A stretch of 64,000 bases of DNA from contig OX597814.1 of assembly GCA_951406725.2 (NCBI GenBank), positions 95,294,001 to 95,358,000 of the forward strand. Reading direction: 5' to 3'. Numbering within the stretch: position 1 is the first letter of the stretch; each line of letters opens with the position of its first letter. Of this stretch, positions 7,980-51,060 are shown one piece after another. The DNA comes from Octopus vulgaris (Eukaryota). The position numbers and the translations under genes were made by a program. The notes below the pieces were generated by a model that saw nothing but the letters and a program-made list of their open reading frames with translations, was not told the origin of the DNA and did not search any database.

Positions 7980-8030
7980 AGCTTCCTGAAGATTTCTCTT
8001 GAATGAAACAGTACTAGTCCTGTAGAAGCT
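7980..8030 (+). ncRNA. Type I hammerhead ribozyme
   Basis: AGCTTC-CTGAAGA-t TTC tctt GAA t-GAAA-CAG tactagtc CTG-TA-GAAGCT: 6-bp stem I, canonical core, GUA triplet (predicted cut after 8024), AATAAA at 8041-8046. Confidence 0.82.
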
Positions 8031-10054
8031 CCTTCTATATAATAAATTTAAAAAAATATATATATATATATATATATATATATATATATATATGTATATA
8101 TGTATATGTATATATATATATATATCTGTATATTCATACATACTATATTTGAGAATGGGTTACAAAGATAACAAAATGCAAAGCAGTAGCAGCAGCACAC
8201 GCCCCTATCTTACCCTACTCTATCCTATAGCCATCAATGGGTTTAATCCTGGAGACCTTATTATTTTGTTTGCTCATCTATTTTATTATTCCTTAACTAT
8301 TTTTGTTTTGTTTCATTTTATTTCCATTAGATACATACATATATATATATATATTTATATATATATATATATATGTTTCATTTTATTTCCATTAGATACA
8401 TACATACATATATATATATATATATATATATATTATTATTATTATTATTACTACCATTGCTACCTACTACCTCCTCCTCATCTTCATCATTGCCATCTTT
8501 ATTGTCTTTTATATGTATAATCTTTGCTAACCCCATTTTGTTTATGTTGAGTACTACCCTCACAGACATGCATACACAACCACATAAGCACATTCCTTTA
8601 CACACACACACACACACACACACACACACACACACACACATACACACACACACACACCATGCCCAAAAGAGTGGCATTGCTGACATTTAAAAAGCAGAAA
8701 CCAAAAACATTGACACACGTACAAACACACTACCATCACAAAAATCCTTATCCTGCATACACACACACATACACGCGCACACACACACACAAACACACAC
8801 ACACACACACACACACACACACACACACACAAATACACACACATACACACACACAACCTGGCAAAATGCAAAATAATGATGAAACATCGACAAAACTACA
8901 GCAACAACAAAAAGACCCAAAACACCCCTGTAAAAAAAAAAAAAACCAAAAAGAAAAGAAAACAACAAAACAAAACCCCCATGTTGAATATGATAAAATT
9001 GTTAAATAAAAACTGAAGCAACAAGTAAGGAAGGAAGACAAATAGACAAACTGTTGCCATTATACATGTCTTTCTTTGGTGTACTGTTTGAAAGTATTAC
9101 CATTTTTTTAATACTGACAACTACAATAAGAATTCAGGATAATGTCATTTTGTTGTTGTTGTTGTTGGGGGTAACAAAGCTAGTAATGGTTCTTGTGTTC
9201 AGCCTCAGATCAGCAACTCTGAGCAAGCAGTCCTATGTTCAAATGCGTTTCTGTTTGGACCATCCCAGCTACTTTTGTTTAGTTCTTTTTTTTTTTTTTG
9301 TATTCTTTTTGGTTTTATGGCATGACATGATTGAGATTTGGTTGATATTTCTAGCATGTCGGATAACCATATAAAAGCATCTTTGGGCTTAGCCCCTGTT
9401 TTGTTGACTCCTGTGAGCTCCCTCCTTTGTTTCAAAGTAGTGGTGGTGATGGGAAGTGCATAGGTAGAGAGAGAAAGCAGAGGATGGGGGGGGGGGGGGG
9501 ACATTGACATTCATTCAGGTTGCTATGGTAATGAAAATAATTTAAAATAAACCCCCCAAAAAATAGAAGAAAATAATGTCTAAGAGTTAGCTAAAACAAA
9601 TAGCTAAGTGAACATACACCTCCAGGCGTAAACCATTCCTACCCACTAATTTCCATATATATCAATATAGATGCCAGCATGGCAATGAGGTTGAGTTAAA
9701 ACGTTCACTTCCCAACCATGTGGTTCCAGGTTCAGGTCCCACTGTGTGACACCTCAAGCAGGTGTCCTCTACTATAGCCCAGGGGCCAACGTCATGTGAA
9801 TAGATTTTGTAGATGTAAACTGAAAGAAGACTGGCATGTGTGAGCATGTGTTTATGTATGTGTGTGTATATATATATGTGTATGTGTATATATATATATA
9901 TATATCATCATCATCATCATCATCGTTTAACGTCCGTTTTCCGCGCTATATATAATATATATATATATGTATGTATGTATACACACACACATATATATAT
10001 AACATAAGGTCATATGTGAGAGGTGAAGAGATGTATTTTTCCATGACTTCTATA

Positions 10055-10174
10055 TGATTACAGCTGTTTTGTAACCTCCTGCATGTAGTGTTAATTTCCG
10101 TATAGGAAATTACACATACATGTTTACATCAATATCTATCAATGCAAATAAAGAAAAATTAACTCATCTGATCA
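10055..10174 (-). ncRNA. Degenerate hammerhead ribozyme remnant
   Basis: Minus strand: TGAT-CAGATGA-(long, poorly paired stem II)-AAAA-CAGCTG-TA-ATCA; stem I intact, two core substitutions; near a (TA)n tract. Confidence 0.45.
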
Positions 10175-11134
10175 TCAGAATTCCTAGCCCTTAAAAATCA
10201 TTGTAGAGTTTATTTTCAGAATAGGTCTCATTTTCAGGGAAATACATACATACATACATACATACATAATGTTGGGTGGCACATATATGTTATATGTGAA
10301 TGTGGGGAAGCAGGTATGGCTAAAGAGTTGAAGTTAACTTTGCAATCATGAGAACCTGGATTCAGTCCTGCTGTACAGCATCTTGAGCAAGTGCATTTTT
10401 CAAAGACTTGAGTAAATGAAAACTGTGTGGAAGCCTATCTGATGGAATCTATCTGATTCAGCTTGAGAATTATGTTGGAGGTAATCATGTTTATGGAATA
10501 CTCAGCCACTCAAAAGTTGATTTTTCACAAGTAATTCAGTTGGTCGAACAATTGAATGCTCATTACCCAAATTTATCTTCGTTGTGTATTTTCTATACGT
10601 ATTTCTACAGTCGTTGCTCCGATGAACATTCTGACCGAGTATTCTCAGTCAAGATCTTTAAAAGTGTCATCTGTTTTTCTTTCCAGATGCATCGTTTCTC
10701 TGTTAAGCTTCATTTTATGAGAATGTGTGTGAGAGTGTGTGTGAGTGTGAGTGTATGTGTGTCTATATATATATATACATATATATATATATATATATAT
10801 ATATATATATATATATATATATAGGAAGGGGTTGGCGTTAGGAAGGGCATCCAGCCGTAGAAACACTGCCAGATCAGACCCCAGTTGAACCGTCCAACCC
10901 ATGCTAGCATGGAAAGCGGACGCTAAATGATGATGATGATGATGATGATATATATATAAACTGCCATGTGCAAGACATATATATATATATATAAACTGCC
11001 ATGCACAATGTGTTACCGTAAAGGAAAACTATAATTGTCACTAAATGCATCTAAGGGTGTTAAAATACATTAGTGACTTGCTAAATCATCCATAAATTTT
11101 TATCGTGAATATATAAATGGTGATAGTTAATTAA

Positions 11135-11354
11135 CCCTTTAGCATTCAAACCAGCCATATCCGGCCAAAATATTTAACCTGTTTTATATTAAAACTGACC
11201 AAATCTCGCCTCTCACCTCAGCCCTACCATGTCATTCTAAAACTAAAAAATCACATCACTGAAATCTCTAAACTACAAGATAATGCATGATTAATTCAAA
11301 ACAATATAAATAAACAAACATCACATTTGACAGAATAAGCTGAACACTAAAGGG
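11135..11354. mobile_element. piggyBac-type MITE (TTAA target)
   Basis: TTAA|CCCTTTAG...CTAAAGGG|TTAA; two further copies in tandem, opposite orientation, at about 26363-26760. Confidence 0.8.
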
Positions 11355-11382
11355 TTAAGCCTGGAATCAGCCAAGTGAGTGG

Positions 11383-49587: not shown

Positions 49588-49670
49588 AGACTACACATGT
49601 TTCGTGGCTATATTTTCCAACTTATAACAGTAAAATCAATTCAATTTAAATATAGTCACTCATCAGGTCT
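49588..49670 (-). ncRNA. Type I hammerhead ribozyme, long stem II
   Basis: Minus strand: AGAC-CTGATGA-GTGACTATATTT...AAATATAGCCAC-GAAA-CATGTG-TA-GTCT; canonical core, 11 of 12 stem II pairs, ACATGT palindrome, GUA triplet. Confidence 0.85.
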
Positions 49671-50377
49671 TTAATTGTTTTTATTTGTTTTTTCCTTGCC
49701 ATAGCTTATATTCAGATGCAGCTCGAAGATAATAATTACAGTAAAGAAAGAAATATATAATCGACAGCTCCACTGGTTTTTCTCAACAAAATTATTATTA
49801 TTATCATTATTATTATTATTATTATTATATATATATATATATATATATATATATAAAATCATCAGTATTATCATTAATATTCAGAAATAATCAGAATACA
49901 TAAAAAATGAGAGAAATAGGAAGAAATGAAAGTATAATTTAAGTAAAGAACAACTTATATTAGCCTAATAAAATAGAGGTACTGCAAATGCAGTAAAATA
50001 AAATACTGTACTGTAGTTTGAAAAGCAACAATCCATTTTAGTTACAGTAGAAAATTTCTTTTAATGACAAATTAATTAACACAAATGTTTTTGACTCTAA
50101 TTAACATTTTTTTTTTTCATTTTTTCTGGATGCTGGCTGCTTAAGAATTCCAATTATGAGCAGGGGTAAAAAATTCCATTTTTTTGTGAATATGTACCTT
50201 TGTAATGTAATTATTTCTATTGTCTTTAATTGTTTTTATTTGTTTTTTCTTTGCCATAGTTTATATTCAAATGCAGCTCGAAGATAATGATTAAAGTAAA
50301 GAAAGAAATATATAAACAACAGCTCCACTGTTTTTCTCAACAAAATATTCTCTACAATGACACATGGTTTCTATATT

Positions 50378-50783
50378 CTTTTCTACTCTAGGCACAAAGT
50401 TCTAAATTTTTTTTTGGGGGGGGGTGAGAACCAGTCAATTAGATTGACCAGTATGTAACTGGTACTTAATTTATCGACCTCAAAAGGATGAAAGGCAAAT
50501 TTGACCTTGGCAGAATTTGAACACAAAACATAGACAGACGAAATACCTATTTCTTTACTACCTACAAGGGGCTAAACACAGAAGGGACAAACAAGGACAG
50601 ACAAATGGATTAAGTCAATTATATCAACCCCAGTGCATAACTGGTACTTATTTAATCGACCCTGAAAAGATGAAAGCCAAAATCGACCTCGGTGGAATTT
50701 GAACTCAGAACGTAGCAGCAGACAAAATACCACTAAGCATTTCGCCTGGCATGCTAACGTCTCTGTTAGCTCACCGCCTTCAT
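50378..50783 (-). mobile_element. Dimeric SINE family A copy
   Basis: Two core units with different tails enclosed by one 14-bp TSD, ATGGTTTCTATATT (50364-50377, 50784-50797). Confidence 0.8.
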
Positions 50784-50985
50784 ATGGTTTCTATATTGCA
50801 GTCAATAAAAGTTTGAACATATTCATACACATATACAAATGTTTTCACATATGCAAACATATATATGATATATATATATATATATATACATACATACACA
50901 CATATAATTATTACTAATAATAACAAGTATGGAGACTTGTACATCCACAAAATTTATTTTATAGTTATATACAGTATATCATAAT

Positions 50986-51060
50986 GACCTACACATGTTT
51001 CTGCTATTCACTATTGTAAACGCAACTTTGCAATACAGTCAGTGCAGCTTCAACAGGATC
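50986..51060 (-). ncRNA. Degenerate hammerhead ribozyme
   Basis: Minus strand: GATC-CTGTTGA-a GCTG...TAGC a-GAAA-CATGTG-TA-GGTC; one core substitution. Confidence 0.55.

Follow-up and report, generated by a model that had tools for sequence, protein, structure and literature searches.

Hammerhead ribozyme motifs with self-complementary stem III strands in a 64-kb window of Octopus vulgaris: putative relics of several Penelope-like element (PLE) families

We identified a scattered set of hammerhead ribozyme (HHR) motifs, together with inverted copies of some of them, in a 64,000-nucleotide stretch of the Octopus vulgaris genome (contig OX597814.1, positions 95,294,001 to 95,358,000; hereafter the window; Table 1). 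The core (CUGANGA / GAAA / UH) is intact at 7986 and 7877, 19919, 36151, 38200 and 49666, and its G3-C8 swap at 7545 is compensated; four further cores (11389, 20821, 41803 and 51056) carry one change each and that of 10170 carries two. Stem I is 4-7 bp long, in type I order, at all 10 loci of our cross-pairing table (with 41803 in and 7580 out), and stem II, at least 4 bp at the five loci recovered by the blind scan described below, is weak at 7986 and 20821. An extra base between positions 9 and 10.1 and a G10.1-C11.1 pair occur together at 7545 and 19919; elsewhere we find the extra base with a G-U pair (38200), G-C without the extra base (49666), G-U (36151) and U-U (7986). The stem III strands fall into seven types, of 4, 6, 8, 8, 9, 14 and 16 nt, and those of 41803 (ACAT) and 7986 (one mismatch) are imperfect palindromes. 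The 38200 HHR sits within an element whose head resembles a tRNA; the window holds no tRNA gene according to ARAGORN. An earlier note had described dimer-type minimal hammerheads here, which is true of most loci, and had spoken of intronic copies; no host exon or host gene was identified for the window.

Table 1. HHR loci and related inverted duplicates, with positions counted from the first letter of the window.
Locus	Feature	Positions	Strand	Characteristics
	Head-to-head inverted duplicate	7363..7705		Arms 7419-7562 and 7563-7706, 98% complementary, flanked by (TA)n tracts; left arm longer by ~57 nt
7545	Minimal type I HHR, swapped G3-C8 core	7503..7552	-	Stem I 7 bp; stem II 5 bp, G-C closing pair; extra G before stem II; stem III AATATT (7516-7511); U17 at 7510
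	Inverted twin of 7545 HHR	7573..7622	+	Holds AAATATTT at 7608 of the earlier note; substitution reduces stem I to 1 bp, vs 7 bp in the minus-strand twin
7877	HHR identical to 7986 copy, inverted	7833..7883	-	79-nt arms, 100% identical
7986	Type I HHR, intact core	7980..8030	+	Stem I 6 bp; weak stem II with U10.1-U11.1; 16-nt stem III strand 8008-8023, folds alone as 4-bp stem; A17 at 8024
10170	Degenerate HHR-like relic, weak candidate	10054..10175	-	U4A + G12A; stem II region spanning 93 nt; stem I of 5 bp; stem III ACAGCTGT, as in 19919
11389	HHR, U4A core	11383..11435	+	Stem I 6 bp; 14-nt stem III strand 11415-11428, folds alone as 5-bp hairpin; A17 at 11429
19919	Intact-core HHR	19915..19973	+	Stem I 4 bp; stem II at least 7 bp, extra A before GAAA; stem III ACAGCTGT at 19961-19968; A17 at 19969; within ~217 nt bounded by (TA)n tracts
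20821	HHR, U4C core, Hydra-clade-like	20788..20825	-	Short stem II; odd 9-nt stem III ACTC-A-GAGT (20801-20793); A17 at 20792; within ~185 nt bounded by (TA)n tracts
36151	Intact-core HHR	36146..36239	+	Stem I 5 bp; long stem II; stem III ACACGTGT (36226-36233); A17 at 36234
38200	Classical minimal HHR	38160..38205	-	Stem I 5 bp; stem III ACGT (38169-38166); U17 at 38165
	Inverted twin of 38200 HHR	38567..38604	+	Stem III, the site of cleavage and stem I's 3' strand are absent
41803	Additional minimal HHR, absent from the earlier note	41773..41807	-	U4C core; stems I and II 4 bp each; stem III ACAT, a single transition away from ACGT; within ~211 nt bounded by (TA)n tracts
49666	Intact-core HHR	49588..49670	-	Stem I 4 bp; stem II ~10 bp; stem III ACATGTGT (49600-49593); A17 at 49592
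51056	HHR, A6U core	50986..51060	-	Stem I 4 bp; stem III ACATGTGT (50998-50991); A17 at 50990

We searched the window with a descriptor that specified an intact core, a stem I of at least 4 bp and a stem II of at least 4 bp, and that ignored stem III. This blind scan found five loci (N3 at 19919 and 36151 on the plus strand, and at 49666, 38200 and 7545 on the minus strand), and the A15.1-U16.1 strand is fully self-complementary in all five. By comparison, 300 block-wise dinucleotide shuffles of the window gave 50 matches in total, a mean of 0.17 per window with a maximum of 2, and only 5 of these 50 had a palindromic stem III; as a background rate, some self-complementary strand follows 196 of the 914 GAAA sites. 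An origin of the motifs by chance, in DNA rich in AT and microsatellites, would fit the Rfam searches, in which nothing reached the gathering threshold and none of the 150 weak matches listed, out of 225, was a hammerhead (microsatellite-like miRNA models dominate), as well as the monomer folding z-scores, which are mostly unremarkable, and the commonness of short palindromes. It would also fit a relaxed scan, whose non-palindromic matches (e.g. 18434, 17926 and 56725) we treated as noise, and the broken cores of 10170, which the scans did not pick up, and 51056. Against the shuffled null, however, this reading is hardly credible: it is refuted for the five intact-core loci, with 10170 and, less so, 51056 outside that refutation, and stems I and III of 20821 match published Hydra-clade motifs. 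The stem III palindromes are real in HHR context. As bare strings the hexamers are meaningless, since they are so frequent in the window (40 ACATGT, 25 CAGCTG and 11 ACTAGT). Two further strings considered as HHRs, GAAACATGTA at 13213 and GAAACACATGT at 56700, were rejected for want of a convincing core plus stem I.

All ten palindromic strings that the earlier note had assigned to stem III are present where it placed them (CTCAGAG on the minus strand, 20800-20794); several are misregistered or imperfect, although the palindromic character of stem III itself is borne out by the blind scan. For example, ACATGT (49595 and 50993) is an off-centre piece of the 8-nt ACATGTGT, which starts at 49600 and 50998 on the minus strand and is followed by A17. 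Taken as a whole stem III, ACATGT would set G at position 17 and lose stem I, and G17 slows minimal hammerheads at least 300-fold in the experiments of PMC3884650; the locus ends of the earlier note (49588 and 50986) agree with the 8-nt register. AACGTT and AAATATTT extend into the core, and the actual strands are ACGT and AATATT; the 16-nt strand with one mismatch holds ACTAGT (8013) in the loop of its 4-bp stem; and CTGATCGGTCAG is self-complementary but needs a G-U pair.

We scanned 148 of the 171 open frames of the window in Pfam and found no PLE ORF among them, so the assignment of these loci to PLEs is indirect. Repeats were sought by masked self-BLAST; microsatellites swamp unmasked repeat finding. 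The HHR loci are linked in it only as inverted pairs, with same-family copies on opposite strands, forming three head-to-head inverted duplicates (a one-sided extension could be aligned for one of them); it found no tandem same-strand HHR copies in the window, and a direct repeat at 50248-50344 ends short of the HHR core. The median distance of 10 loci to the nearest (TA)n tract is 146 nt, vs 530 nt for random sets, and 1.3% of 5000 draws were as low. Inverted truncated copies, tails and a (TA)n bias are among the PLE traits described in PMC8557442, and the inverted duplicates and (TA)n proximity seen here fit these insertion traits; for example, the duplicate at 7363..7705 would be a PLE-like inverted truncated insertion.

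The earlier note had proposed that each family carries its own stem III palindrome as a possible dimerisation address. Seven stem III types in one window and mostly unfavourable cross duplexes speak for such a code, yet three palindrome groups are common to non-homologous loci: ACAGCTGT to 19919 and 10170, ACAYGTGT to 36151, 49666 and 51056, and ACRT to 38200 and 41803. Palindromes that unrelated elements have in common are therefore no address reserved to a single family. The four 8-nt strands are cross-compatible above, not below, random expectation (3 of 6 pairs fully so, vs 0.38-0.91 expected; P 0.015-0.07, from four strands only), and the stem III duplex of 36151 with 49666 (-10.5 kcal/mol) is better than that of 49666 with itself (-8.0). 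The published tables agree: counted by eye in Fig. S3 of PMC4209133, ACGU occurs in 29 of 56 families and a palindrome is repeated in 8 of the 11 species with at least two families (the GAAA column is detached in the text, and strands were rebuilt by adding the invariant A); in File S2 of PMC8557442, also counted by eye, ACTT-T-AAGT is common to 5 of 14 Hydra magnipapillata families. Differing palindromes within and between species had already been tabulated by Perreault et al. (2011; PMC3088659). The length of a palindrome and its outer bases follow lineage, and both turn up again in families that are not related. Since CpG is low in the window (observed/expected 0.30) and TpG (1.27) and CpA (1.29) are high, decay is expected to turn ACACGTGT into ACATGTGT and ACGT into ACAT; ACATGTGT may instead be a family consensus, there being one insertion per family in the window. 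A selected address of this kind is, on this evidence, very unlikely.

Pairing between copies was modelled as double hammerheads for nine loci (41803, 10170 and three inverted twins left out). Homodimers came out at -12.9 to +5.8 kcal/mol; 28 of the 36 heterodimers were unable to close stem I, seven lay at +18.8 to +30.3 kcal/mol and one at +5.7, all nearest-neighbour energies being rough at such junctions. In the cross-pairing table, a contiguous stem I of 4-7 bp forms with self; among the 90 cross cells, one has 4 bp (41803 with 19919, in one direction only), three have 3 bp and the others 0-2. Heterodimers are thus disfavoured in the model chiefly via stem I, and by this modelling it is stem I, which the earlier note did not consider, that carries most partner discrimination; stem III adds real discrimination between loci, as most heteroduplexes are predicted to be unfavourable in stem III alone. 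The proposal of family-restricted cleavage therefore holds in so far as homodimers are far favoured in the folding model, but the discrimination is mostly that of stem I and not of a palindrome address. Because homodimers are so much more favourable than heterodimers in this model, solitary copies are probably silent.

The strands of 7986 and 11389 do not have an unstable stem III: they are predicted to fold stem III alone (intramolecular 15.2-16.2 pair, P 0.74 and 0.79), with monomer folds 2.2 and 1.1 kcal/mol above the ensemble. These hairpins suggest an alternative in which control does not operate through dimerisation: longer strands would be ordinary intramolecular stem III hairpins, cleavage in vivo would need the protein of the element, and the palindrome would be permissive. 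Consistent with this, the HHR of Anolis Poseidon cleaved only with protein, and its cleavage was dispensable for insertion, in the in vitro work of PMC11167929, and minimal HHR dimers cleaved weakly in PMC4209133. However, the 4-, 6- and 8-nt strands have an intramolecular stem III probability of at most 0.02; self-complementarity spans the strand centre, where a hairpin requires no pairing; and even 7986 and 11389 are more stable as modelled homodimers (-8.0 and -12.9 kcal/mol) than as monomers. We regard this alternative as rather unlikely.

The address proposal had a further part, that the loci at 49.6 and 51.0 kb, sharing a palindrome, might pair in cis. They do lie on the same strand 1.4 kb apart (A15.1 at 49600 and 50998, 1398 nt), and 49666 x 51056 is the least unfavourable of the 36 modelled heterodimers, at +5.7 kcal/mol vs -2.4 and +2.3 for the two homodimers. 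Against this, each junction has one contiguous cross stem I pair, bulges are needed beside the cleavage sites, and the core of 51056 is A6U; section 8 of PMC3088659 reports low activity for a natural A6 change, A6C. The two loci are also non-homologous: neither masked self-BLAST nor masked flank alignments detected homology between them, and the flank alignments reached p<0.03 in 4 of 135 comparisons, about chance level, with this pair in none (scores before masking were inflated by microsatellites). We discarded the idea that 49666 and 51056 are the paired pLTRs of a single element, as there is neither homology nor an ORF between them. Since the cis pair is nonetheless the least unfavourable heterodimer, the model disfavours it, short of strict exclusion.

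Two side observations belong here. The stem II loops of 36151 and 51056 give p=0.01, a hint of distant kinship that fails multiple testing. The swapped G3-C8 core, seen at 7545, was met in our literature search only as an engineered variant.

Overall, it is quite probable that these loci are pLTR relics whose hammerheads worked as same-sequence double hammerheads, with specificity arising from stem I and stem III as a by-product. The loci would be pLTR fragments of several PLE families, separate from one another, for the most part solitary and in part decayed, the fragment of each family bearing a minimal or near-minimal hammerhead of type I. In a head-to-tail tandem transcript such a hammerhead works as a double hammerhead of two same-sequence copies, and it is established that stem III is palindromic because the strand must there pair with itself. 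It follows from the topology of the dimer that the core of copy A cuts copy B after its N17 and that both stems I, too, form between the copies; partner specificity would therefore rest on stem I plus stem III. Specificity would then arise as families drift apart, each keeping its self-complementarity, with no unique palindrome code. The copies in the window are most likely silent, since there is no same-strand twin, the nearest twins are antisense and would fold back (the inverted pairs at -132 to -344 kcal/mol in the model), and mutations have hit several of the cores.

That dimerisation is restricted to families is plausible as a side effect; a selected code lacks support. It is decidedly improbable that stem I and the stem III palindrome, both exchanged in the dimer, form a two-part key under selection for orthogonality among co-resident octopod PLE families, perhaps including families with unusual cores such as the G3-C8 swap of 7545. 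If this were true, the transcripts of one family would be neither cut by nor wasted on those of another, an incompatibility-group system written in ribozyme helices; and if co-resident families were found to avoid each other's keys, hammerheads would have a selected role in retroelement competition. Any distinction of self from non-self has to be looked for in stems I and III jointly. Our literature search returned no study of HHR heterodimer specificity, which Lunse et al. (RNA Biol), outside that search, may address.

An unstable palindromic stem III that a second copy completes is a feature these loci share with the double hammerheads of ASBVd, the newt satellite and repeat-type RNAs described in PMC6466107 and PMC3088659; those act in head-to-tail multimers, whereas the window has no tandem same-strand copy. 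Animal non-LTR retrozymes, as presented in PMC7229834 and bioRxiv 10.64898/2026.07.22.740005, likewise have type I HHRs in short non-coding repeats, with a proposed pLTR origin, but are defined by tandem HHR units, and the copies here are solitary or inverted. Among the Hydra-clade PLEs (Craig et al., 2021; PMC8557442), which include a listed family of Octopus bimaculoides, the odd 9-nt stem III of 20821 is shared with Penelope-3_HM, its stem I and ACTC-N-GAGT type with Hydra-2_aMil, and the (TA)n insertion with the clade as described there. The 20821 motif differs in its U4C core and very short stem II, and its 185-nt fragment has no coding sequence, RT or GIY-YIG that would place it in the Hydra clade.

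The closest likeness is to the minimal type I HHRs that metazoan PLE pLTRs carry (Cervera and De la Pena, 2014; PMC4209133), whose reported motifs have the same core and short stem I, an extra base before stem II, seen in the window at 7545, 19919 and 38200, and a palindromic 15.2-16.2 strand, and whose copies are mostly solitary, with opposite-strand pairs 100-700 bp apart, as in the window. Fig. S3 of that study also contains ACGU (as at 38200), an ACUAGU-containing strand and an extra A before GAAA. Unlike the motifs reported there, several window loci have stem III strands of 8-16 nt and long stem II loops, the core of 7545 has G3-C8 vs U3-A8, and no PLE ORF adjoins. The window adds no new principle, but octopod examples of a known feature: that stem III is palindromic and dimer-dependent in PLE hammerheads has already been published (PMC4209133; PMC3088659 Fig. 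S8; review PMC6765202).

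All ten strings that an earlier note had assigned to the stem III regions of hammerhead ribozymes (HHRs) are found at their positions. Since such hexamers are common in the window as bare strings (40 copies of ACATGT, 25 of CAGCTG, and 11 of ACTAGT), we utilized a descriptor blind to stem III: the core must be intact and stems I and II present, but no condition is set on the A15.1-U16.1 strand. It matched five type I loci (N3 core position and strand: 19919+, 36151+, 49666-, 38200-, and 7545-); all five have a fully self-complementary stem III strand, versus 5 of the 50 matches in 300 shuffles (mean 0.17, maximum 2). 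The palindromy is real. Relaxed scans additionally gave 7986+/7877-, 11389+, 20821-, 51056-, and 41803-, plus non-palindromic noise; the locus at 10061 (10170) is a doubly broken relic, spotted by eye only. Rfam at gathering thresholds gave no match in the window, and no hammerhead is among the 150 listed of 225 weak Rfam matches; minimal hammerheads appear to escape Rfam's models.

Hammerhead loci (by N3 core position) and other features of the window
Position	Strand	Stem III strand	Core change or description
7545 (inverted twin 7580)	- (+)	AATATT	G3-C8 core, carried by each arm (7503-7552 (-), 7573-7622 (+)) of a 286-nt fold-back
7986 (inverted twin 7877)	+ (-)	16 nt, ACTAGT inside its loop	
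10170	-	ACAGCTGT	U4A, G12A
11389	+	14 nt, with G-U pairing	U4A
19919	+	ACAGCTGT	
20821	-	ACTCAGAGT	U4C
36151	+	ACACGTGT	
38200	-	ACGT	
41803	-	ACAT	U4C
49666	-	ACATGTGT	
51056	-	ACATGTGT	A6U
49289-49339	+	9 nt, one mismatch	Degenerate hammerhead, stem I 1 bp
7420-7705, 7815-8048, 38085-38640			Head-to-head inverted duplicates
50222-50344			Direct repeat of 49667-49790, the 5′ flank of the 49666 hammerhead
51071-51078	-		8-nt complement of the strand that follows the cleavage site; lies 14 nt 5′ of the 51056 core
6126-7361	-		LINE frame, 412 codons, reverse transcriptase and PHD-finger
36336-36490, 42322-42601			More LINE fragments
57363-57791	+		Presumably mariner-type transposase fragment, by motifs
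60603-60947	-		Presumably LINE RT fragment, by motifs
35123-35360, 50541-50780, 56213-56449			Examples of dispersed repeats
35938-36088, 46948-47020, 41490-41539, 19215-19252			Local fold-back palindromes without hammerhead core; the first adjoins the 36151 element

At 49.6 and 51.0 kb the symmetry unit was wrongly taken to be ACATGT, the true strand being ACATGTGT; we rejected ACATGT as the whole stem III because it would put G at position 17, the cleavage site, and minimal hammerheads with G17 are described as slower by a factor of at least 300 (PMC3884650). A single C-to-T substitution within a CpG turns the 36151 palindrome into ACATGTGT, and a single G-to-A substitution turns ACGT into ACAT. 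Since CpG is strongly depleted across the window (observed/expected 0.30; TpG 1.27, CpA 1.29), decay is the simplest reading of both strands; a family consensus using G-U pairs is a possible alternative. The U4C core, common to two unrelated motifs, may be a family-level variant instead of decay, and a viroid variant with U4C has been reported as weak but viable. The 8-nt stretch at 51071-51078 offers 51056 an alternative, longer stem I, which suggests an insertion beside its core. The direct repeat at 50222-50344 ends exactly where the stem I 5′ strand does, directly before the core, and gives a second stem I strand ∼555 nt upstream of that of 49666, on the same strand.

Most hammerhead loci lie in fragments of a few hundred bases flanked by (TA)n tracts, except for 38200, whose nearest tract is 1.9 kb away; the median distance to (TA)n is 146 nt (10 loci) versus 530 nt in random sets, and a median this low came up in 1.3% of 5000 draws. 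Three head-to-head inverted duplicates are present; in the first, just one of the arms has an extension. For Penelope-like elements (PLEs), published features include inverted truncated copies, one-sided tails, and a bias toward (TA)n (PMC8557442), as well as minimal hammerheads that are solitary or on opposite strands and have a palindromic stem III (PMC4209133). The 20821 motif shares its stem III with Penelope-3_HM, and its stem I and stem III type match those of Hydra-2_aMil (PMC8557442 File S2). Pfam found no PLE ORF in the 148 of 171 open frames scanned; therefore it is from anatomy that we infer the loci to be fragments of PLE terminal repeats (pLTRs). The 38085-38640 duplicate contains a SINE-like, hammerhead-bearing element, each copy consisting of a tRNA-like head (presumably so, from its A- and B-box-like motifs; ARAGORN found no tRNA there), an (AAT)n spacer, and a minimal hammerhead; the + copy is without stem III and cleavage site. 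The core and stem II ends of the degenerate hammerhead resemble the published Hydra-1_oBim motif.

Within the window, the palindromes are not unique to each family, contrary to what had been proposed: seven non-homologous loci fall into three groups with a common palindrome or its one-transition variant. Inverted twins aside, masked self-BLAST linked no two hammerhead loci, and masked flank alignments gave p < 0.03 in 4 of 135 comparisons, none being 49666 versus 51056. Among the four 8-nt strands modelled, three of six pairs are fully cross-compatible versus 0.38-0.91 expected at random (P 0.015-0.07), and the 36151 x 49666 stem III duplex (-10.5 kcal/mol) is better than the 49666 self-duplex (-8.0 kcal/mol). 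In published sets, ACGU is used by 29 of 56 families and a palindrome is repeated in 8 of the 11 species having at least two families (PMC4209133 Fig. S3, counted by eye); in Hydra magnipapillata, ACTT-T-AAGT is common to 5 of 14 families (by eye), and for 9 of the 14 the strand recurs in another family, two of these rows showing no difference anywhere (PMC8557442 File S2). On the other side, stem III comes in seven different types within the window, and the majority of cross duplexes are unfavourable when judged by stem III alone; thus, stem III does discriminate between loci, though not uniquely.

When two copies form a double hammerhead, their stem III strands pair antiparallel, A15.1 of copy A with U16.1 of copy B, so that the junction on copy A's core has to close stem I with the strand following N17 of copy B; it follows from this topology that both stems I are intermolecular and that each core cuts its partner. 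A locus forms 4-7 contiguous stem I pairs with itself; among the 90 cross combinations the number is 4 in one (in a single direction), 3 in three, and 0-2 in all others. With all four junction pairs enforced and energies taken relative to free monomers, modelled homodimers range from -12.9 to +5.8 kcal/mol; 28 of 36 heterodimers are unable to close stem I, and seven cost +18.8 to +30.3 kcal/mol. The remaining one, 49666 x 51056, costs +5.7 kcal/mol versus -2.4 and +2.3 for its homodimers. The proposed cis pairing at 49.6 and 51.0 kb therefore gains from being the least unfavourable heterodimer, but we consider cis cleavage there unlikely, since a bulge would be required at one pair's distance from both cleavage sites and one core carries A6U (a natural A6C variant is described as having low activity; PMC3088659 section 8). 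Restriction of cleavage to the same family is predicted, mainly through stem I; it requires no selection, because short helices of unrelated origin seldom match. In H. magnipapillata not even the combined key is unique: families 4, 8, and 13 are compatible with one another in both stem I and stem III (by eye, PMC8557442 File S2). The address-code idea holds only when corrected to a two-helix and probably incidental one, and we consider it quite improbable that the key is under selection.

Solitary copies are likely silent, presumably because they have no same-strand twin in the window, because an inverted twin would form a fold-back with the ribozyme (computed at -132 to -344 kcal/mol), and because several cores are damaged. 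The premise of an unstable stem III fails at 7986 and 11389, which form hairpins alone (4 and 5 bp, with pair probabilities of 0.74 and 0.79). An Anolis PLE hammerhead is described as cleaving only with its protein (PMC11167929), so cleavage may have other controls besides dimerisation.

The window DNA is AT-rich and rich in microsatellites. The LINE frame at 6126-7361, which we take to be RTE-like, has a Pfam RVT_1 match (E 3e-19), and its closest named relatives are from Octopus bimaculoides (83%) and O. vulgaris (85%), which makes an octopod the most likely source of the DNA; Pfam gave no match for the frames at 57363-57791 and 60603-60947. Three big dispersed repeat families, probably SINEs, occur window-wide (15-18 merged intervals apiece), one copy sitting between the 49.6 and 51.0 kb hammerheads.

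The most unusual item among the window's hammerheads is the 7545 motif, whose core carries a reciprocal G3-C8 swap; its stem I spans 7 bp, and, as is typical of minimal motifs, it has the extra base and a closing G-C pair. The published accounts of this swap considered here present it as an engineered variant and gave us no natural G3-C8 core, the natural covariation reported at this pair being U3-A8 (PMC4209133; PMC3088659); it is possibly an unreported natural core, although one insertion cannot demonstrate a family trait. Palindromic stem III, dimer dependence, and palindrome variation within and between species are already published (PMC4209133; PMC3088659 Fig. S8; review PMC6765202). We found no test of heterodimer specificity in the literature, though work by Lunse et al. 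on dimeric PLE hammerheads may cover it, and the one relevant work that we found on octopus hammerheads is the Craig et al. survey. The window's hammerheads add octopod examples to an already described class.
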